In this document: in pieces, positions 2,935 through 42,703 of the stretch | How the letters are laid out: every line of letters starts with the position of its first letter | Position numbering within the stretch: the first letter of the stretch is position 1 | Virus record (IMG/VR): IMGVR_UViG_3300045993_000887 | Location: 1-52,092 of that record | Length of the DNA stretch: 52,092 bases | DNA from: a virus | Direction: 5' to 3' (one strand) | The notes under the pieces: model-generated | Told to the model about the DNA's origin: nothing | Seen by the model: only the letters and a program-made list of their open reading frames with translations | Databases searched by the model: none | Translations under genes and position numbers: made by a program

Positions 2935-3297
2935 ATGACTACAGAAATTATATCTCAAGCATTAGCCGATCCTGACAGTTTTTATACTGAGCGATGGGAA
3001 TGCGGCTATATGGTTTACCACGGGCGGTTTAATTGGTTCGCTACTTCTATCAATAAAGCGAAAGAAAAGCTTGTAGAGATTAGGAAGGAAGTAGCCTCTA
3101 AGCTTTTGATTTCAGAGGCTTATCGTATTGTTTACGGTGATTGCTTGCATGAAAAAAAGGAATATGCAAGGCTAAGAGAATCTGCATTATCAGACGAGCC
3201 TAGAGTCTATTTTGAGCAGATTTACCCAAAAGATCCTAGCGCTTATGAGTACGCAAAGCGCAACGTAAAGCAATCTATGGTAGAGCATCATGAATAA
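2935..3297 (+). CDS. Hypothetical protein
   Basis: 120-aa ORF, same strand as neighbours, overlaps the next gene by 8 nt. Confidence 0.55.
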   Translation: MTTEIISQALADPDSFYTERWECGYMVYHGRFNWFATSINKAKEKLVEIRKEVASKLLISEAYRIVYGDCLHEKKEYARLRESALSDEPRVYFEQIYPKDPSAYEYAKRNVKQSMVEHHE

Positions 3298-4889: not shown

Positions 4890-7800
4890 ATGGCAAGCAA
4901 CAGCACTGCAACGATTATTTTTAAGGGCGATGACCAGATATCACCCGCAATTAAAGGCGCTACTGCGAGTGTGGCGGGGCTTAGCCAATCGTTTGAGGGC
5001 GTTGATACAGGGGCTAAGCAAGCATCAGATAGCATTAGAGAGAATCTAGTTAAACAAATTGAGGCGGCGCGTCAAAAAGTTTCTGATTTTGCTAAACAAG
5101 GCTTAAAAGTTGAGCAAGGGCAAGCATTAGGAGAATTAAGAAAATTACAAGGGGAGCTAAAAAAACTTGACGCACCTGTAGGGACTAACACTTTAGATCC
5201 CCTTGCGGCATCTGCCAACAAAACGGCTGTCCAAATTAAAACTGAACTTACCAAGTCAATATTGGCTGTAAATCAAGAATTAGCAAAGCTTTCAACCCAG
5301 AAATTAACGCCTGAAGTTCGCCTAAGACAAGATCAATTATTAGGTCAATTATCAGGATTAAAAACTCAATTAAAGGATATTGACAAACTGGTTGTACAGC
5401 CAAAAGTACAGCTAGACCCGCTACAACTCAATGCCATATCGCAAAGTTTTGGGGCGATCGCGGGTAAGCTAACAGAATTAAAAGGATCGGCTGTTGCGGC
5501 GGCGGGTGCGATTTCCGTAGCTGAGAGAAAGCTGTCCACAGTATCAGATGAGTCTGGGAAATTAATCAAGAATTTTGGCGATTTGGCTGCGGCTAACAAA
5601 TTCCAGACCACAACAGCAGAATTAGCAGGTGCATCCTATGAAGTTTTAAGCGCTGGCTTCACCAAAACTGCTGATGTAACTAAAATCCTAGACGCATCAA
5701 CAAAGGGGGCTGTAGGCGGTTTCTCAGACGTAATCACAGTAAGTAAAGCAACCATTTCAGCGCTTAACGCCTATGGACAAGGTGCAGATCAAGCAGCATC
5801 CTTTGTGGACAAATTCGTGTCTGTGCAGCAAAGCGGCTTAATCACGGTTGATCAATATGCTCAACAAATTGCCAGGATTGCACCAACGGCGGCGGCTGCG
5901 GGTCTAAGCCTAGATGAACTTAACGGCGCAATTGCCACTGCTACTGCATCTGGCGTGCCTGTAGAATCAACATTTAGCGGTTTGCGAACGGCGATCGGCG
6001 CAATCCTAAAGCCAAGTTCTGAAGCTGTCACATTATCGAAAGAATTAGGGATTAGCTTTAATGCTCAAGCCCTAAAGACTAAGGGACTAAGCGGCATTCT
6101 TAAGGAATTAAAAACGACTGGCAATGATAGCGCTGATACGCTCCTTAAATTATTTGGCTCGGCTGAGGCATTGGCAGCGATCGCCCCTTCAATTAATAGC
6201 ATCGAAAAATTAGAGGCAAATATTAAAGCAAGTGCCAATAGCGCGGGGCTTGCAGCCACTAATTTTGATAAAGCCGCCGATCCTATTAAAGCTTTTGCAA
6301 ATCAAACTACCGAGGCTCTAGCCGTATTAGGCAAAGATGTCCTAAAGGTGTTTAACCCAGTAATAGGCACTTCCAAGGCTGTTGTACAAGCCTTTTTAGA
6401 ATTGCCACAGCCAGTGCGAGAAGTAATTGCTTTTCTCGTTGGAGGTGGTGCGGCGATCGCAACTACAGGCGCGGCTATTTCTGGATTTTTGGCAATTCTT
6501 AGCCCAACATTAGCAGGGCTATCTGCACTAGGAACGGGCGTTACGGCTGCGATCGGATTCCTAACGGCTGGGCAAGTGGCGCTCGGCACTGCTACAGCCA
6601 CAACTACTGGATTAACGGCTGCTGAAGCTGCGGCTTTTGGCGGTGTGGCTACTGCATCAGGCAGCGCAACGGCGGGCGTAGGAGGACTGACCACAGCTAC
6701 CGCAGGACTAGGCACGGCGGCGGGTATTACGGCGGGGACATTAGGATTGATCGCATTGGCGGCGGTTCCTTTACTGATCATCGGCAAGCAATTTAATGAT
6801 GCATGGGGAACCGATAAAGTTACGGCTGGCTTAAAAGATATGCGTAGGCAGCTAGACGATATCAAAGCAAAAAGGGGGGAATTAGCTAAACCTCAAAAGG
6901 GACAAGATGATGGATTAGGCGGGACTGGAATTAATGAAGGCAATTTTAACGGATTTATAAACCCATTTAATACCAGACAAGACGAACAAAAAAATGTTAT
7001 TCGCTTTAGCGAAAAACAAAATCAGGATGAGTTAAACAAAGTTTATGAAGATGGCGTCTCCATACTCAAAAAGTATGGAGTGGCTAGCGAAGAAGCTGCT
7101 AAAAAAACAAAATTAAGCAAAGAACAGTTAGAAGCATTTACCAAAGATATTGCAGAGAAAAAAGAAGATTTTGATATTGCAATTAACAATTTGCAAAAAC
7201 AAGGCGAAGAAGCTAAAGGTAATCCTATTTTGCAAGGGCAGATTAGACAAAGGATTATTGAATTTTCTAATGCAAAAAAACTATTAGATGACAAGCTTAA
7301 ATTGCAACTCGAAACTAATAAAAAAGTAGAAGCTGCTGAGAAAAGATCGTCAGAAGCCATTGAAGAGATTGCTAAAAAACGGATTGATAAAGAGAAGCAA
7401 AATAATGAGAACCAAGCTCGGCTGCGTGGACGTGATTTTGAGCAAAAAGCAAAAGCAGAAAGTGGCGCTTTTGAAACAAAGTCGCGTGATGATAAGCGAG
7501 TATTTGAAGCACAATTAAATACTGATAAAAAGGCATTTGAAGAAGGGCAAAAAGCTGACAAAAAAGAATTTGAGAAAGGACTTCAAAGCGAGAATAAGCA
7601 GTTTGCTCGCGATCAAAAAGTTGAGCAACAAGCTTTCAATGCTGAAGAAAAAGCTAGTGACAAAGCCTATGAGAGAGAGAAGCAAGCGGCGCAAAGAGTC
7701 TTTGATAAAGAGCAAGAAAAAGCTAAAGAAGCATTTGATAAAAAGCAACGTGACGCAAGTTTAGCATTTGACAAAAGCCAAGATGCTGCTAAAAAAACGG

Positions 7801-13917: not shown

Positions 13918-15481
13918 TAACTTTCACCTCTAAATTATTTGCTATATTTCCAAATTCGCCATCAATTTGAGACTTAATCCACCATGACGGCGTGCCATTC
14001 CTAAATCGCATAGTACCAGCACGTTGGACATTGCGATAGAACTGATTAAACTTGTTCACATCACCCTCAAATATTGCGCCTAAAGCCCAATATTTGAGGG
14101 GTTTAGGGAATGCCTCAAACCTTTTATTAACATAATCCACATAAGCGCCGCTAGTGCATCCTGAGCGCTTATACTCTTTCCTTAGTAATTGCCTGTAAAA
14201 CTCACGATGCGCTTGCTCAGAGCCGTCATTCATGACCATAGTGGGTGTAATTAGCTGTGAGAAAGAGCCATTTAATTCTATTCGCTCTTTCTCTTTAATT
14301 GGGAATAGATAAGCACAGTATGGACAATTACGCTCTTGTGCGCGAATGATTCTAGAACACTCAGGACAAGTCTTAACAGGCGCTTCACCAGCTTGTCTTA
14401 GTGGCTTGCGACTAAGTATTGATGCTTTGGTGTGGACACGTTCGCAAGGATAGCCAGATGCTTCTAGATTGCCAACACAGTCGATGATGATACCGCGCTC
14501 TTTGCCTTCTGCAATCCTAGCCACACGCCCGATTTGCTGCTCTATGATGGCTAGGGATTTAGAGGGACGCATAAGCAAGCCTATTTCTATTTCTGGCAAG
14601 TCAAAGCCCTTGGTGAGTGCCATGCAGCTTACTAGCAGCTTAATTTCGCCACGTTTACAAAGCCCAAAAACTTCTAATCGATATTCTTTTTTATCAGTAC
14701 CAGTGATTGATGCGGCGCTAATTCCTAATCGATTCGCAACTTCAGTTATGGCGATCGCGTGTTCCACGTTTACGGCAAAAGCGATCGCTCTTTTACCCGC
14801 TCCTAATCCTTGATACTTATTCAGTGCCGCCATAATTGCCTTTTCATTATTGACAATTTTGGCAGTTTCTTTTACTTGGTAATCACCTTGAGCGATTTTT
14901 ATTTTGCTAAAATCAGCATGGTCAATCCCGTAATAATCCAAAGGTGCTAAATACCCTAATTTTTGCAATTCTGCAAATGATGGACTGATGACAGCATCTT
15001 GGAATATATCAGCAAAACATTGTTTATTGGATAGGCGGTATGGTGTGGCTGTCAAGCCTATTACCCATTTACTAGACTTCTCAATTAGCTTTAAAGATAA
15101 TGCATACCAGCCAGTAGTATGTACTTCATCTAATAGAATTAAATCCCAGTGGCAATCATGCCAAGCGACTCGATTAGATAAAGATTGGATAGAAGCAATA
15201 AACACACTAAAGTCATTATAATCAGGCTCTTGATATCCATCTGCAATCACTCCATAGGGTACTGTTAGCTTGCTAGCGGTCTGGTCAATCAAAGTAATGT
15301 TATCCACCAGAAAGAGAACTTTGCGCCCCTTGGCAGCGAATCTAGCCATAAGTGCAGAGGCGATTACTGTTTTGCCACTTCCTGTGCTGGCAACTAGTAC
15401 GATATTTTGATTTTTAAGTGTGTTGGCAGAATGAATTACTTGGTTGATTATGTCCTCTTGAAATGGTCTAAGAGTTAGCAT
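13904..15481 (-). CDS. Superfamily 2 DEAH-box DNA helicase with C-terminal zinc ribbon
   Basis: 525 aa. Motif I ASTGSGKT, II LLDEVH, III TATP, VI QQIGRVAR. CPECS...CPYC. Confidence 0.85.
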   Translation of the reverse strand: MLTLRPFQEDIINQVIHSANTLKNQNIVLVASTGSGKTVIASALMARFAAKGRKVLFLVDNITLIDQTASKLTVPYGVIADGYQEPDYNDFSVFIASIQSLSNRVAWHDCHWDLILLDEVHTTGWYALSLKLIEKSSKWVIGLTATPYRLSNKQCFADIFQDAVISPSFAELQKLGYLAPLDYYGIDHADFSKIKIAQGDYQVKETAKIVNNEKAIMAALNKYQGLGAGKRAIAFAVNVEHAIAITEVANRLGISAASITGTDKKEYRLEVFGLCKRGEIKLLVSCMALTKGFDLPEIEIGLLMRPSKSLAIIEQQIGRVARIAEGKERGIIIDCVGNLEASGYPCERVHTKASILSRKPLRQAGEAPVKTCPECSRIIRAQERNCPYCAYLFPIKEKERIELNGSFSQLITPTMVMNDGSEQAHREFYRQLLRKEYKRSGCTSGAYVDYVNKRFEAFPKPLKYWALGAIFEGDVNKFNQFYRNVQRAGTMRFRNGTPSWWIKSQIDGEFGNIANNLEVKVNAPH

Positions 15482-16379
15482 TTACTACACTCCCAATAAC
15501 TTTCTCATAGAGTAAAGGAGGGACAGCATTCCCAATTCCTTTACGAATTGGCTCAATTTTATCGCCCCAAATATAATCTTTTGGGAATGATTGGAGCCGT
15601 GCCAAGCAATCCAAATTTAATTGGATTGTCTCACCTGATTCTATTAAAGCTCTAGGGTCACGATCGCTTGCTTTGATAGTAAATATCGGTTGATTGGCAT
15701 AACGAACCGTATTAGCTCGTTGCTCGGTAGAGGACATAACAAATGGCTTTATTATTCCCTTTGTCATGTTTTTTTGCCAATCAGCAAAATCACTTTGCTT
15801 GCAATTTGGGATTAAATCAGAGATCGCCTGATACCAACCGATATGCTTTTCTTTAGGTGGGAGCGATGGAATAAAGCCAGATTTTATAGCAATGAGAATT
15901 AATCGGCGGCGCGATTGTGGAGCTCCAAAATCAGCAGCATTTAGTACCTGGCAATTCAGCCAATAGCCTTGAGAATAAAGTGTTTCAATAATATTATTAA
16001 AGGCTTCATGATTGCCATACTCAGCCACATTCTCAAGGGTAAAATATTGTGGCTGTAAAGTACGAATAAATTCGCAAACTTTAGCGGCGCAATCAAGATC
16101 TAATTGAGTCTCTTTTGCGTCAGTCTTGGCGCTTGAGTATGATTTACAAACAGGTGAAGCGTGAAGTAAATCAACTTTCTCAAACTTCATGGGGTCAGCG
16201 TCAAGAATATTTTGCACATAAACTTGACCATGATTTGCCCTATAAATTTCAGCAATCGCGGGGTCAAATTCTAATCCCCATGCATGGGTGAACCCTGCTT
16301 GTTTCATGCCCTGTGCAACGCCGCCACAGCCACTAAATAGATCGGCTGATGTTAGGCTAGAATGGGAAGTCATCATCAT
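15468..16379 (-). CDS. DNA cytosine-5 methyltransferase (1 of 2)
   Basis: Motifs DLFSGCGG (I), SPVCKSYS (IV-like), LENV (VI), QSRRRL (VIII), GNAVPP (X). The ORF track extends to 16415, but the Met triplet at 16379-16371 is the more likely start. Confidence 0.85.
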   Translation of the reverse strand: MMMTSHSSLTSADLFSGCGGVAQGMKQAGFTHAWGLEFDPAIAEIYRANHGQVYVQNILDADPMKFEKVDLLHASPVCKSYSSAKTDAKETQLDLDCAAKVCEFIRTLQPQYFTLENVAEYGNHEAFNNIIETLYSQGYWLNCQVLNAADFGAPQSRRRLILIAIKSGFIPSLPPKEKHIGWYQAISDLIPNCKQSDFADWQKNMTKGIIKPFVMSSTEQRANTVRYANQPIFTIKASDRDPRALIESGETIQLNLDCLARLQSFPKDYIWGDKIEPIRKGIGNAVPPLLYEKVIGSVVNANS

Positions 16380-16653
16380 CCTCCCAATCACGAAGCACTT
16401 CAACCCTAAAATCATGCAATTGAGTATTAAATTGCCCTTTCCTAAATGAAGAAATTTTAGAAATATCTAAATCTTCTTTTGCAAATTCTGGAAAGTTTTC
16501 AGCGCACCAATCGCAAATCTTCATTGCATCAGCAAAAATTTCTGTGTCCGTCTTTGGCAATCGAAATCCGTTGTCATGAACAACGTTGTAAAAAAATATA
16601 AGCTCAGGCAGAAGAATAGTGCCTTGTGTTGTCTGCACTTGGATTGTAATCAT
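16357..16653 (-). CDS. Hypothetical protein
   Basis: 98-aa ORF in the leftward replication operon with an acidic C-terminus (WEDDDDFPF). Confidence 0.55.
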   Translation of the reverse strand: MITIQVQTTQGTILLPELIFFYNVVHDNGFRLPKTDTEIFADAMKICDWCAENFPEFAKEDLDISKISSFRKGQFNTQLHDFRVEVLRDWEDDDDFPF

Positions 16654-36924: not shown

Positions 36925-37476
36925 ATGGGCTATATGGCAAAGGGTAAAGCTAAATTATCAGATTTTAAATGTCAAGCAAAAAACACTAATAAGCACAAGC
37001 CGCGTGGTATGGCAATGCTTGACAGTGTTATTGAAACTGACGGATGGCAAGGTGGGATAACTGTTGCTGCCAATGGTGAGACGTTCGCAGGTTCGGCACG
37101 CTTAGAGGTTGCAACTAATCGATTTGGTGAAGATGCTGAGCCGATCATGGTGCATACTACAGGTGATCGTCCTGTGATTATTGTGCGTGATGATATCCCA
37201 GATGCTAATCACCCAAAAGCAGTTAGGCTAGGCATTGCAGATAATCGGATAAGCGAAATTAACTATGATGCTGATTATGAGTTATTGACTGAGATATCGG
37301 ATGAAATTGATATTTCAGATATGTATGATGACGATGAGTTGATTGTGGATACAGATGAGAGCGAAACAGAAAACGTTCCATATAATCCTGAATCATCAGC
37401 TAAAGAAGTCAATGTAGATAATTTTGAGTTTGAATGCGAATGCCCCAAATGTGGGTTTCAATTTAATGGTAAATAG
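36925..37476 (+). CDS. ParB-like nuclease-domain protein with C-terminal zinc ribbon
   Basis: 183 aa. NTNKHKPRGMAMLDSVIETDGWQGGITV...GSARLEVA...RLGIADNR fits the ParB N-terminal domain pattern. ECECPKCG. ATG 36934 is an alternative start. Confidence 0.55.
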   Translation: MGYMAKGKAKLSDFKCQAKNTNKHKPRGMAMLDSVIETDGWQGGITVAANGETFAGSARLEVATNRFGEDAEPIMVHTTGDRPVIIVRDDIPDANHPKAVRLGIADNRISEINYDADYELLTEISDEIDISDMYDDDELIVDTDESETENVPYNPESSAKEVNVDNFEFECECPKCGFQFNGK

Positions 37477-38458
37477 CATCGCTTGGTATCTGAAAGATTT
37501 AAAATCCGTTACTCAAAACGGACTAAAAGTTATGACTACTTTTAGTTGCGGCGGCGGTAGTTCTATGGGGTATAAGTTAGCAGGGTGCGAGGTGATTGCA
37601 GCTAATGATATTGATCCTAAAATGGCATATCACTATAAATTAAATCTCAATTCTAAACATTATTTTCTATGTCCTATCAAAGATTTAATTGGCAAAAAAT
37701 TACCAGATGAACTTTACCAATTAGATATCCTAGACGGATCGCCGCCATGTTCAACTTTTTCTATGGCTGGCAGCCGCGAAAAAGCATGGGGCAAAAAGAA
37801 GCATTTTAGAGAAGGTCAAGCCGAACAAATTTTAGATGATTTATTTTTTGATTACCTTGATTTAGTTGAACATTTGCGCCCAAAAGTAGCGATCGCTGAA
37901 AATGTCAAAGGTTTGTTACAAGGCAATGCGAAAGGCTATTGCAAGTTGATTATTGAGAGGTTTAAGGCGATCGGCTATAAGCCTCAATTATTTCTGGTTA
38001 ACGCTGCTGATTGTGGCGTTCCACAAAAGCGAGAACGTGTATTTTTTGTGGCTTTGCGCGATGATATTGATAAGCCTAAATTGCTATTAGCTCCTAAGCA
38101 CAGATGGATTAGCGCGGGTGAGGCGATAGAAGATTTAGGGCATAAAGTTAAAGGATTATTTCTTGTTACGGCTGGCAATGAAAGGCATGTCAAAGCTTTT
38201 AGACTTCCTATACATGATCCTTATTCTCAACCCGCCCCAACATTGACAGCTACAGGTAATTCTTTTGATTTAATTTCTAAAGATCGCGAAACTGAAGAGA
38301 GGGCTTATACTTTTGCCGAATATAAACGCCTTGGTTCATTCCCTGATGACTACCAAGCGAAAACGGGTAAGATAGGCAAATATATGATAGGAATGAGCGT
38401 ACCGCCACGCATGACAGAACAGGTGGCTAAAGCTGTGATAGAGCAGTGGTTAAGTTAA
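37466..38458 (+). CDS. DNA cytosine-5 methyltransferase (2 of 2)
   Basis: Motifs TFSCGGGS (I), GSPPCSTFS (IV), ENVKGL (VI), QKRERVF (VIII), GMSVPP (X). The ORF track starts at 37424; ATG 37466 is more likely. Confidence 0.85.
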   Translation: MVNSIAWYLKDLKSVTQNGLKVMTTFSCGGGSSMGYKLAGCEVIAANDIDPKMAYHYKLNLNSKHYFLCPIKDLIGKKLPDELYQLDILDGSPPCSTFSMAGSREKAWGKKKHFREGQAEQILDDLFFDYLDLVEHLRPKVAIAENVKGLLQGNAKGYCKLIIERFKAIGYKPQLFLVNAADCGVPQKRERVFFVALRDDIDKPKLLLAPKHRWISAGEAIEDLGHKVKGLFLVTAGNERHVKAFRLPIHDPYSQPAPTLTATGNSFDLISKDRETEERAYTFAEYKRLGSFPDDYQAKTGKIGKYMIGMSVPPRMTEQVAKAVIEQWLS

Positions 38459-38878
38459 ATGGCACAAAAAAGCGACAATGCAGAAATAGAAAAGCGAGTA
38501 AATAAAGTTTATTCGCTTATTTTGCAATGTCATTCTACTGAAAAAATCGTAGCTTATGCTAGGCAAACGTGGGGCATAAACCGCGCTCAAACGACTAGAT
38601 ATATAAAAAGGGCGCGTGACCAAATGAAGGAGGTTTGCGCGATTGAGAGAGAAGAAGCTTATGCTGAAGAGATGGAATTAAGGCGTGAAATCATCCGTAA
38701 AGCACTTGATGAGAAGAAGTACCAAACAGCATTACAGGCAGCCGACAGCAGGGCAAAACTAAGGGGCTTATTTGATAAATTAGAGCAAGCGATCGATACG
38801 GTGACAGCACATGGTTACGAAGTGTCCGACCCCACTGAAATCACCGAAACACAAAGCGAAAATAGTACGCAGGAATAA
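38459..38878 (+). CDS. Probable terminase small subunit
   Basis: 139 aa. N-terminal HTH-like IVAYARQTWGINRAQTTRYIKRA, then a coiled coil. Lies immediately upstream of and overlapping terL. Confidence 0.45.
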   Translation: MAQKSDNAEIEKRVNKVYSLILQCHSTEKIVAYARQTWGINRAQTTRYIKRARDQMKEVCAIEREEAYAEEMELRREIIRKALDEKKYQTALQAADSRAKLRGLFDKLEQAIDTVTAHGYEVSDPTEITETQSENSTQE

Positions 38879-40502
38879 AAATCAACAAATAGATGTAGAT
38901 ATCAATTGGCAACCAATTCCAGATAGCCCTCAAGAGTTTGCTTTTAATCACCCTGCCGATGAACTTTATGTTGGCGGCGCTAGTGGCGGCGGTAAAACTT
39001 CATTAATTATTGGCACGGCTGGCTATTGCAAAAAAGCTTTAATTTTGCGGCGCGAATTCCCACGCGCTAGAAATATTATTGAAAGCTCACGGCTTATTTT
39101 TGCGCGTGATGTGTCAATTCATGCGAAAGATAGCTATAACGAATCACTTCACCTATGGCGCTTAGCCAATGGCACTACAATCCAGATTGGTGCTTGTCAG
39201 TATGAGAAAGACTGGGTAAAGTTTCAAGGACAGGAGCATGATTTTAAGGCTTTTGATGAGATATGCGAATTTACTGAAAATCAGTATCGTTCTATCAATA
39301 TTTGGAACCGTCACCCAGATCCTAATGTGCGGTGTCGGGTCATTGCCACAGGAAATCCCCCAACGACTGTTGATGGTGAGTGGGTTATGGATTATTGGGG
39401 CGCTTTTGTTGATCCTGATTTTGATGGCGATCGCGCTGAAGAAGGTTCGCTTGTTTGGTATGTGCGGGTAAAAACAGGAGACGATGAGAAAGACTTAGAA
39501 ATAGCCCGTACAAGCTTGGAAGATGTTAGAAAGGCAATTGCTAATAAAACAAAAATAGAGCGCCCTACCTACGAAATAACGCTTGCTACAGGGGATAAAA
39601 AAATATTAGTCGCAAGGTCACGATCATTTATTCGTGCGGGTATTGAAAATAATCCTTACTTAATGGCAACTGGATACGATAAGCAATTGGATGCACTGCC
39701 AGAATTTTTAAGGACGCGATTCAGAGAAGGATTATTTCAGCGTGTAACTGAATCTACTGATCTACAAGTCATCCCCACAGCATGGATTGTGGCGGCTATG
39801 GACAGATGGATTGCTTATATGGGTACTAAGTCGCTCGACTATAGCAACGCCCTGAGCACTTATAGGACTAAAAACCCAATGATGAATATGTCTGCTATGG
39901 GCGTTGATCCATCGAGGGGCGGTGACGATGAAACAGCGATCGCTATTCGGTTTGCTGATTTTATTATGCCACTGCACCTGACCAAGGGTAAGTATGTTGA
40001 GGATGGGGATGCAGTTCGAGACATTATTTATAATCTGAGAATTAGCAACCCGCAAATAAATATCGATGTTGTGGGTGTAGGCAGTAGCCCCTACGACTCA
40101 TGCAAAAAGATGGGATGGAGCGTAGTGGCGATTAATGGGGGCGCTAGTGCCACAGATAGGAATAATAAGCCATTAACCGATCGTACTGGCTTATTACGCT
40201 TCAGAGACATGAACGCGATGCTTGCATGGAAATTAATGGAAGCGCTAGATCCTCAGTACAATCCCACGCTGATGTTACCTCCTGATCCTAAATTAAAAGC
40301 TGAGCTATGCTCTATCAGGCGATCGTCTATTGATGGTGGTGTGGTGTCGATTGAGAGTAAGAAGGAAGTGAAGAAGCGATTAGGGCGATCGCCTGATAGA
40401 GCAGATGCAGTGAAGTATGCCCTATTGCAATCGATTAGTATGTACGCCCCTAATCCTAAGAGTCAGGCGGCGGCTTTGGGTAAGGTTAGCGAGTGGGGTT
40501 AA
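38811..40502 (+). CDS. Terminase large subunit
   Basis: 563 aa. Walker A VGGASGGGKTS, Walker B AFDEICEF, nuclease-domain MGVDPSRGGDDETAIAI. The only canonical in-frame start before Walker A is ATG 38811. Confidence 0.85.
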   Translation: MVTKCPTPLKSPKHKAKIVRRNKNQQIDVDINWQPIPDSPQEFAFNHPADELYVGGASGGGKTSLIIGTAGYCKKALILRREFPRARNIIESSRLIFARDVSIHAKDSYNESLHLWRLANGTTIQIGACQYEKDWVKFQGQEHDFKAFDEICEFTENQYRSINIWNRHPDPNVRCRVIATGNPPTTVDGEWVMDYWGAFVDPDFDGDRAEEGSLVWYVRVKTGDDEKDLEIARTSLEDVRKAIANKTKIERPTYEITLATGDKKILVARSRSFIRAGIENNPYLMATGYDKQLDALPEFLRTRFREGLFQRVTESTDLQVIPTAWIVAAMDRWIAYMGTKSLDYSNALSTYRTKNPMMNMSAMGVDPSRGGDDETAIAIRFADFIMPLHLTKGKYVEDGDAVRDIIYNLRISNPQINIDVVGVGSSPYDSCKKMGWSVVAINGGASATDRNNKPLTDRTGLLRFRDMNAMLAWKLMEALDPQYNPTLMLPPDPKLKAELCSIRRSSIDGGVVSIESKKEVKKRLGRSPDRADAVKYALLQSISMYAPNPKSQAAALGKVSEWG

Positions 40503-40660
40503 GCTCGTTTCATACTATCTTCACGCGCCTTCTGTGCTTCTTCCCTCAATCGCTTGCGTTTGGCAAAAATCTCTTCAAATGTTTCAATACGATGATTTGG
40601 ATTTTCGATTAAAATCTCTACCCTAACTTTTTGAGATTGTTCAGTTATTTCGTTTGACAT
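40499..40660 (-). CDS. Small hypothetical helical protein (53 aa, below the ORF-track cutoff)
   Basis: MSNEITEQSQKVRVEILIENPNHRIETFEEIFAKRKRLREEAQKAREDSMKRA. AGGAAG upstream. Overlaps the terL stop by 4 nt, convergently. Confidence 0.35.
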   Translation of the reverse strand: MSNEITEQSQKVRVEILIENPNHRIETFEEIFAKRKRLREEAQKAREDSMKRA

Positions 40661-40669
40661 TTTTTTCTT

Positions 40670-41018
40670 CCTTTTGCTCGACTTTTGCCCTAACAGTATT
40701 TGCGTTACCCGCCCCTAACCGCGCGGAGGTTACTGTTTAAGGGGCATTCCCTCAGTTTACGTCTTGCGGGTAGACGGTTGATTTAAGTGGGTTCTCCACT
40801 ACCTCTTAACTCTTACACTTTCGACGAGGTGGTATTTCGTAGGTTTAACGAGTTTTTACTTTCTCCTCGCATCACGTATTTATAGTGGGAATTACCACCC
40901 CGATTTAGTAGCTCCTAACCTAGACTTCGGTGTCTCGAAGGACGTGATGTTTGCCTCAACCCGCCAGTTGCAGTTACCTGCCTTAAGATGCCTATCGGCT
41001 TCCTTTCCTTCGCTTATG
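40670..41018 (-). ncRNA. Candidate structured ncRNA or long structured 5' leader (unclassified)
   Basis: No ORF of 60 aa or more in any frame across 40661-41227. A consensus promoter lies directly upstream on the minus strand. There are at least five local hairpins (40716-40732, 40760-40776, 40786-40800, 40885-40898, 40925-40940) plus the long-range pair 40692-40698/40731-40737. Confidence 0.4.
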
Positions 41019-41024
41019 TATATA

Positions 41025-41053
41025 AATATAGCACTCTATATGGCGTGTGTCAA
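41025..41053 (-). promoter_or_regulatory. Consensus sigma70-type promoter pointing into the ORF-free region
   Basis: The minus strand reads TTGACA (41053-41048), 17 nt, TATATT (41030-41025). Confidence 0.55.
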
Positions 41054-41077
41054 CCCCCCTAGCAAAATCGCTCAAAT

Positions 41078-41229
41078 GTATACAGTGCATAGCTTTCAGG
41101 AGCTTTTTTTAGTAAAACTTTAGAAATATAATTTTAAATTATTTTACTGATATTTTGCTAAACGTATACAGTGTGGGGGTTTCGCGCGGTAAATTATTTT
41201 AATTTCGCTAATATAATTTTAAATTATTT
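41078..41229. repeat. Two direct repeat units, about 85-86 bp apart
   Basis: GTATACAGTG at 41078 and 41164. The exact 20-mer AATATAATTTTAAATTATTT at 41125-41144 and 41210-41229. Confidence 0.8.
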
Positions 41230-41548
41230 ATTTTTTAGCCTTTTTGCGCTTTTCCTGTTTGCGTTTTTGGGCGGCGCGATATCCTTCAGGATCGTTTAAT
41301 TTCCACCGTGCTGTTAGTTCGGCTTGTGTAAGCTTGTGATCGCCCATCAATTGTCCACCTTCTGGGCGATTACTATCAGTACAGGTGAAGTTAGGCGTGT
41401 GGCGTCTGCATCGGTACTGTTTTGCGCCCGATGGCAAGTTTTTATTAAATGTGGTGTGTTTGCCACAAATAGTTTTGATAATTTCTCCGTCAACCACGGA
41501 TTTAAAAACGTGTTGGCAGATCGGATTTGCAAGATTAGGTTTTGGCAT
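41228..41548 (-). CDS. Zinc-ribbon protein with basic C-terminal tail
   Basis: 106 aa. C-x-H...C-x-K-H...QYRCRRH cluster. Tail KRKQEKRKKAKK. Confidence 0.55.
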   Translation of the reverse strand: MPKPNLANPICQHVFKSVVDGEIIKTICGKHTTFNKNLPSGAKQYRCRRHTPNFTCTDSNRPEGGQLMGDHKLTQAELTARWKLNDPEGYRAAQKRKQEKRKKAKK

Positions 41549-41593
41549 AGTTTAAAAATTATACCATACTTTGCATAGGTGCTACAGAATAGT

Positions 41594-41926
41594 CCTAACC
41601 AAGTGCTAACCAGCCTTATGATCTATGCCACATAAGAAGTGTAGGCTATTCGTTAAAATCTCCTAACCAAGTGCTAACCACCCACTAACCACTATGTGTA
41701 GCAGGGGTCTAGCCATATTGCCTATCTAATACCTACATTACACATACATACAGGTAATACATATACACATATATTCATTAGTGTTTTTACGTGTATCTGT
41801 TTTGTATAGGATTTAAAACAGCATTTTTGGCTAGGCGGCTAACCAACACGGCACAAAAGCGGCTCTGTGTATTGCTTGTAGGGGTGGTTAGCACTTGGTT
41901 AGCTATGGTTAGCTCAATCACCCTCT
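41594..41926. repeat. Iteron cluster, candidate origin of replication
   Basis: CCTAACCAAGTGCTAACCA at 41594-41612 and 41662-41680. Exact inverted 18-mer TGGTTAGCACTTGGTTAG at 41885-41902. Extra GGTTAGC/CTAACCA copies up to about 41926. An AT-rich ACATACATACAGGTAATACATATACACATATATTC block lies between them. Confidence 0.5.
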
Positions 41927-41931
41927 AACCA

Positions 41932-41979
41932 GCAATAAAGAAGCCCCTGATTAAATTTAATCAGGGGCTTCTTTATTGC
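41932..41979. repeat. Perfect 48-bp palindrome
   Basis: GCAATAAAGAAGCCCCTGATTAAA / TTTAATCAGGGGCTTCTTTATTGC with no spacer. Confidence 0.9.
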
Positions 41980-41992
41980 CAAAAAAGCATAC

Positions 41993-42004
41993 TTGCTTTA
42001 TTTT
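41993..42004 (+). promoter_or_regulatory. Conserved 12-mer TTGCTTTATTTT, copy 4
   Basis: Exact 12-mer 27 nt upstream of ATG 42032, at the head of the capsid-gene operon. Confidence 0.35.
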
Positions 42005-42031
42005 CTAGCCTTAAGCAAAGAAATATTTTTT

Positions 42032-42703
42032 ATGGATTTAGATTTAGGTTGCGTTAGCCAATATAAAAATTGTGTCAGGGGTAAAGCCTGTGGCAATACT
42101 TGCATCAATAAAGATAGAGCTTGCAAACCTAAACCAAATGCTAAAGCTAATGCTGTTGGGGACTTATTGGCTAATCCTGATAATTTGGAGAAGGGGGCGG
42201 AGAGTTTTGACGGTTTACTAGCTGACGATTTTCTTCCGCAAAACAATAGTTTAACTGATAAATTTCCGCCTATATATACTGGGCCTTTAGAAAGATTTAC
42301 TAAAACTAGCTTTGTTGGCGATGAGCATGATATTGAAACTGATATTAAATCCGCAAAAAATCCGCCAATTGATCCGCCTCCATCAGTTCAGAATGTAAAT
42401 ATATTTGTAGATTCAGGATTTAGTAAATCTAATATAGAGGGGAAAGATGGGCTGAAGTTAGCTCTAGCTAGTCGTGATCATGTTCGGGAATATGTAAAGC
42501 AAGCCCCTGAAGGGACTGTTTTGATGAATACGCCTTTTTCGGGTGATGGATTTGGAGATCAAAGAGCAAAACTTTATGAAAAAGCGGGGTTTTCGCCACC
42601 TGACAAAGATGAGCATATGTATTCAATCGTTTCAGAGGGGAAAAATATCCCCATTACTCTAGATGAAATAAAAGCGCTTAAAGAAGCAGGGCATACTAAA
42701 TGA
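42032..42703 (+). CDS. Hypothetical protein: Cys-rich N-terminus, possible GNAT-like C-terminus
   Basis: The ORF track starts at TTG 41993; ATG 42032 is more likely. CVSQYKNCVRGKACGNTCINKDRAC. The C-terminal QRAKLYEKAGF resembles the GNAT motif. Confidence 0.5.
   Translation: MDLDLGCVSQYKNCVRGKACGNTCINKDRACKPKPNAKANAVGDLLANPDNLEKGAESFDGLLADDFLPQNNSLTDKFPPIYTGPLERFTKTSFVGDEHDIETDIKSAKNPPIDPPPSVQNVNIFVDSGFSKSNIEGKDGLKLALASRDHVREYVKQAPEGTVLMNTPFSGDGFGDQRAKLYEKAGFSPPDKDEHMYSIVSEGKNIPITLDEIKALKEAGHTK

Follow-up and report, generated by a model that had tools for sequence, protein, structure and literature searches.

A predicted theta-type ribozyme between an exchangeable upstream RNA and a small gene in a cyanophage-like genome

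The virus record IMGVR_UViG_3300045993_000887 from IMG/VR, whose entire stretch of 52,092 nucleotides (nt) was analysed and is termed the window here, represents a cyanophage-like genome. In the interval between its terminase gene terL and the portal gene we find, on the strand opposite to terL, a module that we read as a moron-like unit whose transcript is split by a theta-type ribozyme into an exchangeable upstream RNA and a downstream mRNA. We assign this reading a probability of roughly 0.65. A strong and conserved sigma70-type promoter (41053..41025) would start the RNA near position 41018. The first ~273 nt of the transcript would be non-coding and would be followed by a 54-nt theta-type ribozyme (40745..40692), which is predicted to fold as a nested double pseudoknot and to cleave itself at the 5′ edge; the cut would fall between 40746 and G40745. 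One cleavage product would be an RNA of ~273 nt (41018..40746) with a 2′,3′-cyclic phosphate at U40746. The other would be an mRNA with a 5′-OH at G40745, comprising the ribozyme fold, a 5′ untranslated region (UTR) of 31 nt with a Shine-Dalgarno sequence, and an open reading frame (ORF) of 53 amino acids (aa). Hence, the ribozyme would act as a terminator-free 3′-end maker and as an insulator, so that cargo and gene share a promoter as separate molecules. The model, in which we infer the transcription start, the self-cleavage, the chemistry of both ends and any function of the 273-nt RNA, builds on a stand-alone version of one cargo RNA gene in a relative, on tandem ribozymes in another, and on the published cleavage by theta ribozymes at tRNA 3′-ends.

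A sequence-only reading of the window had proposed a novel structured RNA of about 350 nt for this region, with a long leader of the 53-aa ORF as the alternative. A structured, functional-looking RNA does indeed lie behind a real promoter, but the part of it that is well supported comprises 54 nt and falls into a family already known. Likewise, the upstream RNA would be the 5′ part of the transcript of the 53-aa ORF, as the alternative had it, but the ribozyme should detach this leader from the mRNA.

The predicted ribozyme

Judged by its fold, its core sequence and its model score, the element at 40692..40745 (minus strand) is a member of the minimal HDV-like (HDV, hepatitis delta virus), or theta, ribozyme family and is predicted to be self-cleaving. 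The 54 nt can be parsed by hand into a nested double pseudoknot with the order P1-J1/2-P2-P3-L3-P3′-P1′-P1.1′-L4-J4/2-P2′. P1 (40745-40739/40717-40711) joins GCCCCUU to UAGGGGC in six base pairs and a U·U, and the single A at 40738 represents J1/2. In P2 (40737-40731/40698-40692) AACAGUA and UACUGUU pair at 7/7 positions, and in P3 (40730-40728/40720-40718) ACC and GGU pair at 3/3. The loop L3, UCCGCGC (40727-40721; parsed as U, CC and GCGC), provides C40726 and C40725 for P1.1, in which they pair with G40709 and G40710 (2/2). L4 is GUAACG (40708-40703), and J4/2, CAAA (40702-40699), contains the putative catalytic C at 40702. Thus G40745, UCCGCGC, GG and CAAA with C40702, the core letters of the family, are intact, and published rows carry the same letter or the same degenerate class. 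The helix lengths are those of the family (6-7 bp for P1, ~7 bp for P2, 3 bp for P3 and 2 bp for P1.1). There is no P4 helix, and L4, which measures 5-8 nt in the family, has the sequence of many published rows.

The sequence-only reading had correctly noted that the cores of tRNA, tmRNA and RNase P RNA are absent, but had overlooked this HDV-like core. Correspondingly, ARAGORN detected neither tRNA nor tmRNA in the window, and a permissive Rfam scan of 1 kb returned no tRNA match at E≤10. All six complementary pairs listed in that reading are present at the positions given for them. However, TAACC/GGTTA and AACAGTA/TACTGTT are not independent hairpins: the former is P3 plus two flanking bases, and the latter is P2. 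The overlap between them, described as competition, is real, but reflects a pseudoknot and not alternative hairpins.

The Rfam search that had been put forward as a check yielded, with Rfam 15, no family at the gathering threshold anywhere in the window. Below the threshold, the best Rfam match in the permissive 1-kb scan was RF02682, the HDV ribozyme of F. prausnitzii, at 40745..40677 on the minus strand. In this alignment P1, P3 and the L3 core correspond, whereas the P4 of the model is force-aligned to the 3′ strand of P2, there being no P4 in the window RNA. We further employed a covariance model, R1, built solely from 15 published gut-phage theta ribozymes, in which P1 and P3 are modelled and P2 is not. 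When the 52 kb were searched on both strands with filters off, R1 reported one site, 40745..40692 on the minus strand, with 32.8 bits and, by a rough calibration, an E-value of about 1.5e-6. The next-best match in the window reached 9 bits. P2, although absent from R1, pairs over its full length in a fixed register.

The collections IMG/VR and GTDB were scanned with exact patterns. With a DNA pattern restricted to P3, L3 and L4, eight loci were obtained in IMG/VR and GTDB genomes, and by inspection the positions of P1 and P2, which the pattern leaves unspecified, are largely complementary in 8/8. In three of these loci (L013, L015 and L017) P1 or P2 is interrupted by a mismatch or bulge, and three (L011, L012 and L013) adjoin tRNAs, the classical theta context. 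Pairing was then assessed in an ungapped alignment of nine distinct sequences, verified against their loci, from which the variable linkers had been trimmed. In this alignment 96.3% of the cells pair, and compensatory two-sided changes occur in 12 of the 18 pairs. None of 500 shuffles reached the observed values, and slid partners paired in 31-52% of cells.

Promoter, upstream RNA and their relatives

The promoter (41025..41053, minus strand) consists, as the sequence-only reading had it, of TTGACA (41053-41048), a 17-nt spacer and TATATT (41030-41025); the spacer ends in TGC. With a score of 11/12 and an extended −10 element (TG), it is the top promoter-like site in the 3 kb from 39500 to 42500, and it is single-copy in the window. 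The hexamers and the TGn are kept in nine promoter copies from eight related loci, and the sequence of the spacer drifts. Transcription would be expected to start at about 41019-41017. A scan of IMG/VR and GTDB genomes with the promoter pattern matched only the contig of the relative L003. The related locus L020 contains two promoters of the same type (TTGACATATGCTGTATA…TGCTAT) less than 350 nt apart, at 1004-1032 and 1352-1380. As the two copies drive different short units, this arrangement suggests that small accessory genes are served by a promoter family specific to the phage.

Upstream of the promoter lies a conserved AT-rich spacer (41054..41227), which contains two copies of GTATACAGTG, also given as (A)AAYGTATACAGTG, 86 nt apart, and twice the near-palindrome ATATAATTTTAAATTATTT. 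One copy of the spacer repeat is present in each of L019 and L020. The spacer may represent an operator, an UP element, or a terminator for the transcript of the upstream gene, which encodes a protein of 106 aa.

The RNA between the expected start and the cleavage site (40746..41018, minus strand; ~273 nt) is non-coding. On its strand there is no ORF with a start codon of 21 aa or more, all three sense frames contain stops, and an open stretch of 41 codons at its 5′-end lacks ATG, GTG and TTG. As noted before from the sequence, the larger region 40661-41227 holds no ORF of 60 aa or more in any frame, the longest comprising 59 aa (40944..41123, plus strand). The same reading had called the region GC-richer and helix-rich. 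The GC content at 40600-41099 (0.43-0.47) does exceed that of the immediate flanks (0.30-0.37), but equals the coding average of the window. Helix richness was not borne out: the minimum free energy (MFE) of the 358-nt region corresponds to a z of −1.12 on the minus strand and −0.29 on the plus strand, and perfect 5-bp hairpins number 3 as compared to 1.5±1.4 in dinucleotide shuffles (p≈0.2). What stands is a mild excess of compact 4-bp hairpins (13 vs 6.2, p≈0.03), the 5-bp excess not being significant.

Homologs were found only for the two ends of the 273-nt RNA, namely for its first 28 nt (41017..40990) in L032 and for its last ~43 nt (40790..40748) in L019. The conserved 5′ block, AUAAGCGAAGGAAAGGAAGCCGAUAGGC (40990..41017, minus strand), is part of a blastn match to L032 with 82% identity over 45 nt, which covers the −10 region and stops at 40990, with divergence beyond; a pattern derived from this block had 0 matches in IMG/VR. 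Close to the 3′-end, the hairpin AGUGG-AGAAC-CCACU (40786..40800, minus strand) is followed by UUAAAUCAACC. Its counterpart in L019 reads GUGG-AGAAUUA-CCAC plus UUUAAAUAACC, the stem being conserved without compensatory changes. A further hairpin, CGUCU-ACCCGCA-AGACG (40760..40776, minus strand), is located 14 nt upstream of the cleavage site. In a comparison comprising four sequences only (the window, two L019 copies and L029), its 7-nt loop is invariant, three of the five stem pairs change on both sides, and 95% of the cells pair, as compared to 20-60% with a slid partner. By eye, complementarity appears to exist between the loop sequence ACCCGC and the ribozyme's GCGGGU at the P1/J1-4 border. 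The pattern for the ACCCGCA hairpin matched more than 119 times in IMG/VR. Among the matches listed the stem was completed in only four, which were discarded as chance hits since they lie in GC-rich, coding-looking DNA with no ribozyme core nearby. The hairpins CTTCG/CGAAG and GTGG/CCAC fall in the centre of the RNA, for which no homolog was found.

Among the relatives that carry the module, L003 is the closest (TerL 78%). One blastn match to it, 447 nt at ~82% identity, extends over the upstream gene, the spacer 41054-41227 and the promoter. The ribozyme of L003 is 93% identical to that of the window; neither the ~270 nt that separate it from the promoter nor the ORF behind it can be aligned with the window. 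Six further loci came from homologs of the 106-aa protein and from a single scan of metagenomes for a ribozyme pattern specific to the clade; in GTDB genomes this pattern had 0 matches. No blastn match to the 781-nt locus or to a 63-nt ribozyme query was found among 50,697 GenBank phages. The relatives keep the same ribozyme P1 and P2, and the few changes fit the fold. The variable sites are G1-C↔G1·U, C2-G↔U2·G, CAAA↔CUAA in J4/2 and G↔A in L3.

Across these loci at least four kinds of cargo are found between promoter and ribozyme. Kind A is represented by the 273 nt of the window. Kind B, present in L003, L030, L031 and L033, is a 64-nt tandem repeat in three to four copies; within every unit there are two short hairpins that covary, one of them with the loop AGGAUGA, and in all four loci the repeat RNA is followed by the ribozyme and then by an ORF. 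Kind C, in L019 and L029, is a different ORF-free RNA, and kind D, in L032, is a 49-aa ORF. The ORF behind the ribozyme differs among the relatives as well.

In one relative, L004 (IMGVR_UViG_3300007177_000338; TerL 73%), kind B forms a stand-alone non-coding gene that adjoins terL (5689..6014, minus strand). It comprises a promoter (TTGACA-17-TAATAT), a leader of ~65 nt, three 64-nt units and a bidirectional intrinsic terminator, and contains neither a ribozyme nor an ORF. The units score 77-79 bits with R2, a covariance model of the repeat unit. The type-B repeat pattern had one match in GTDB genomes, on the Lachnospiraceae contig L154, which we assume to be due to chance. Another relative, L030 (Ga0129333_10023915, minus strand), carries tandem theta ribozymes with their G1 at 3253 and 3092, 161 nt apart, which bracket a 107-nt ORF-free segment in which the motif CAGAAAGGAAAACUGUAAAACCCUC is present in duplicate. 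If both ribozymes cut, a unit of 161 nt bearing a 5′-OH and a 2′,3′-cyclic phosphate would be set free, a possible substrate of a ligase or possible circular RNA.

In addition, several identities of the window's leader were considered and rejected. Model R2 has no match in the leader, its best match in the window lying elsewhere with E≈1, so that the leader is not a type-B repeat, and no tandem repeats are present in 40600-41300. As for an antisense RNA, the best complementary match elsewhere in the window spans 17 nt at 94% (E=0.17). As for a CsrA-type sponge with GGA in loops, GGA occurs 6 times in the leader as compared to 6.4 expected. UAAA is weakly enriched (6 vs 3.5, p≈0.09).

Other relatives lack the module. 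In L009 and L001 the gene of the 106-aa protein directly follows terL, the promoter, RNA and ribozyme being absent, and in L007 the portal gene comes almost at once after terL. On these grounds the promoter-RNA-ribozyme-ORF module behaves like an inserted moron.

On the other side of the predicted cut, a 5′-UTR of 31 nt, AGGGCAAAAGUCGAGCAAAAGGAAGAAAAAA (40661..40691, minus strand), would be left on the mRNA after the ribozyme; it contains the Shine-Dalgarno-like sequence GGAAG at 40671-40667. Its start, AGGGCAA, recurs behind the ribozyme in L003, L029 and L032. In these three relatives, as well as in L020 (~1380-1409, behind the promoter), it opens a conserved C/A-rich and G-poor UTR, AGGGCAAYCACUACACCGCCCA…, of which the window retains only the first 7-8 nt. 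The 53-aa ORF (40499..40660, minus strand) encodes a highly charged small protein that is probably helical. With the post-ribozyme ORF of L032 it shares 74% identity over 39 aa, and a second homolog with 74% identity, P0009, is encoded in L034 in an unrelated, ribozyme-free context. An exact look-up of the 53-aa protein had no match; the homolog search gave an identical protein, P0008, on a JGI contig of 52,092 nt, to which the window corresponds in full. Because homologs occur in both settings, the 53-aa ORF is, by sequence comparison, a real and mobile small gene. The ORF points towards terL in a convergent arrangement with overlapping stop codons (40499-40502). There is no intrinsic terminator between them; L004 has one at this place. 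Transcription from the strong promoter on the minus strand would therefore be expected to continue, in antisense, into the 3′-end of terL, and vice versa.

Weighing the alternatives

Several observations weigh against a transcript split by a theta ribozyme. The 28.2 bits obtained with RF02682 are under the gathering threshold of 44. In the part of the published tables that was compared, all of the ~125 rows have a purine at position 2 of P1, where the window has C, and a fully paired P1, where the innermost pair (pair 7) is U·U throughout the clade of the window element. A pyrimidine at position 2 is also present in L010, L012 and L031, and both deviations probably represent natural variation that the published search motif does not cover. 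Moreover, the nested MFE fold contains a 6-bp hairpin, UGAGGG/CCCUUA, across the cleavage site, which is predicted to compete with P1 and could slow or modulate cleavage. With respect to the upstream RNA, the fold energy of the 273-nt leader is not significant (MFE z = −1.13, minus strand), its central ~190 nt are without a homolog, and the 49-aa ORF in the slot of L032 indicates that the cargo is not always a non-coding RNA (ncRNA). Similar G-runs lie upstream of the cleavage site in L019 and L032.

Given its position, which is analogous to that of the type-B RNA, we consider it somewhat more likely that the 273-nt RNA is an independent ncRNA product than a disposable leader. A broader proposal, which we put forward tentatively, is that in this group of cyanophage-like genomes the terL-adjacent slot is an expression site for exchangeable ncRNA cassettes of at least three unrelated types, among them the 273-nt RNA and the 64-nt tandem-repeat RNA, the 3′-ends of which are made by theta ribozymes and not by terminators. 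If so, the 273-nt RNA would be a new phage ncRNA and could plausibly serve as a decoy or as a regulator that acts on the host or its defences, an idea prompted by the moron-like position and the strong promoter.

The strongest rival, though on balance a rather unlikely one, holds that the 273 nt are discarded and that the ribozyme serves to process the mRNA of the 53-aa ORF, which would thereby obtain a 5′-OH, a constant UTR and a pseudoknot cap protecting it from 5′-end-dependent RNases. In line with this proposal, an ORF is located ~22-70 nt behind the ribozyme in every relative whose sequence runs past the ribozyme. The conserved UTR start likewise speaks for it, being found after the ribozyme or, in L020, directly after the promoter with no ribozyme in between, and the same is true for the missing fold-energy signal and the orphan centre of the leader. 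In addition, it is established that HDV-like ribozymes process the 5′-ends of retrotransposon mRNAs: in the R2 and L1Tc retrotransposon RNAs they process the mRNA 5′-end from a longer co-transcript. Those ribozymes are full-size, contain P4 and belong to eukaryotic retroelements. The window element would resemble them in that the ribozyme stays on the downstream coding RNA with its 5′-OH and the upstream RNA is removed, but it is minimal and phage-borne, and what is removed upstream may be a product in its own right. Discarding the leader leaves unexplained why an ORF-free RNA of ~270 nt is retained upstream in three unrelated sequence types, and it does not account for the stand-alone promoter-RNA-terminator gene of type B in L004 or for the tandem ribozymes in L030; furthermore, one of the leader hairpins covaries.

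The ribozyme-like sequence might also be an inactive relic or a chance match within an intergenic leader. The U·U at the inner end of P1, the C at P1 position 2, the sub-threshold Rfam score and the predicted competing hairpin could be taken in this sense. However, we regard this as very unlikely in view of the score of the independent model R1 (E≈1.5e-6) and of the invariant core, which is intact including the catalytic C, the GG/CC of P1.1 and the A-A of J4/2. In addition, the ribozyme is 93% conserved amid unalignable flanks, and seven distinct members of the clade keep the pairing, including a G-C↔G·U exchange in the pair at the cleavage site.

That the whole ~350 nt form one novel structured RNA of unknown class, as the sequence-only reading had suggested, appears highly improbable. 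The region is ORF-free and lies behind a strong promoter, 4-bp hairpins are mildly enriched (p≈0.03), and one hairpin covaries. Yet the last 54 nt, at its 3′-end, fall into a known ribozyme family and would cut themselves off from the rest, and the MFE z is −1.1. Above all, the relatives swap the upstream part wholesale while keeping the ribozyme, which argues against one conserved fold. Finally, a decayed protein-coding gene is scarcely credible: the leader aligns to no protein-coding gene of the relatives, and although in L032 a 49-aa ORF takes up the corresponding place, with a promoter of the same type before it and the ribozyme behind it, tblastn revealed no similarity between this ORF and the 273-nt leader even at E≤100, the sense frames are interrupted by stops or, in the 41-codon open stretch, devoid of start codons, and the slot of other relatives is filled by clearly non-coding repeat RNA.

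Genomic setting and relation to known theta ribozymes

The terminase TerL (38811..40502, plus strand) is closest to a genomic locus of Phormidium tenue FACHB-1050 (74%), which is probably a prophage, since IMG/VR lists the same stretch. Next come the terminases encoded by Planktothrix phage PaV-LD and by Aphanizomenon phage CL131, at ~36%. Together with the gene content of the window, which includes tail, primase-helicase, helicase and methylase genes, these relatives of TerL led us to designate the genome as cyanophage-like. Two genes for C-5 cytosine DNA methylases are present, at 15468-16415 (minus strand) and 37424-38458 (plus strand). A gene of the Tet_JBP family is located upstream of terL in the L003/L021 relative (L021 6225-6282).

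The upstream neighbour of the promoter is a conserved ORF of 106 aa (41228..41548, minus strand) that encodes a Cys-rich protein with a basic tail. It has seven homologs with 48-72% identity, and, apart from loci such as L009 and L001 that lack the module, the gene is always located just upstream of this type of promoter. It is tempting to speculate that the 106-aa protein is a zinc-ribbon regulator of the adjacent promoter. Neither this protein nor the 53-aa protein matched a Pfam or PHROG family. Further upstream, at 41926-42035, the window contains a strong, palindromic, terminator-like hairpin, AAGAAGCCCCUGAUUAAAUUUAAUCAGGGGCUUCUU, which attracted several spurious sub-threshold Rfam matches (ncr1015, Yfr10 and miRNA models). 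The hairpin probably serves as a terminator in both directions, separating the minus-strand unit from an ORF of 236 aa.

In the study by Kienbeck et al. 2024 (PMC10879173), theta ribozymes have been described as a P4-less subgroup of HDV-like ribozymes that occurs in Caudoviricetes phages. The study states that, to date, the family is confined to phages of Bacteroidota and Bacillota in the mammalian gut. Theta ribozymes are active in vitro, and their cleavage site is at the 3′-end of a tRNA located upstream. Beyond these, 526 isolated occurrences (~40% of the total) are not associated with tRNAs. No function was proposed for them, and most are located in a non-coding stretch, in sense orientation to the neighbouring genes (PMC10879173). 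The supplementary tables of the same study list theta ribozymes in the segmentation used here for the window element, which has the same nested double pseudoknot and the same segment lengths. The shared core comprises G1, ACC/GGU in P3, U-CC-NCGY in L3, GG, GUAACG in L4 and C-N-A-A in J4/2. Like the isolated copies, the window element lies in a non-coding stretch of a tailed-phage genome, in sense to its neighbours.

In contrast to the published hosts, which are gut phages, the window element stems from a cyanophage-like genome in an environmental metagenome. Its P1 starts with GC instead of GR and ends in U·U, and its upstream partner is not a tRNA but an ORF-free RNA of ~273 nt that is swapped among relatives. 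On sequence grounds, we therefore place it in the isolated, non-tRNA subset of theta ribozymes, with a new host range and context. The logic would be the same as in the tRNA-associated copies, where a cis-acting ribozyme located 3′ of an RNA product sets its 3′-end without terminator or nuclease. There, the tRNA 3′-end is within ±5 nt of the cleavage site, whereas the window has no tRNA. Neither an RNA ligase nor a CCA-adding enzyme was identified among the 17 ORFs of the window that were scanned against Pfam, these 17 being a minority of its ORFs. A literature search found no paper linking HDV-like ribozymes to cyanophages. For annotation, it should be borne in mind that Rfam 15 at gathering thresholds misses the window ribozyme.

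Taken together, the comparative context suggests a role for the isolated theta copies, because promoter and ribozyme remain constant, the RNA between them is swapped, and one relative employs a terminator instead. If cleavage is confirmed, the host range of the theta family would extend to cyanobacterial phages, several new phage ncRNAs would become candidates for study, and a testable model would be at hand for the terminator-free formation of 3′-ends, by which an ncRNA is uncoupled from the downstream mRNA. Should the terL-adjacent slot in fact be an expression site for ncRNA cassettes, theta ribozymes would be general makers of RNA-gene 3′-ends, beyond tRNAs and beyond the gut.

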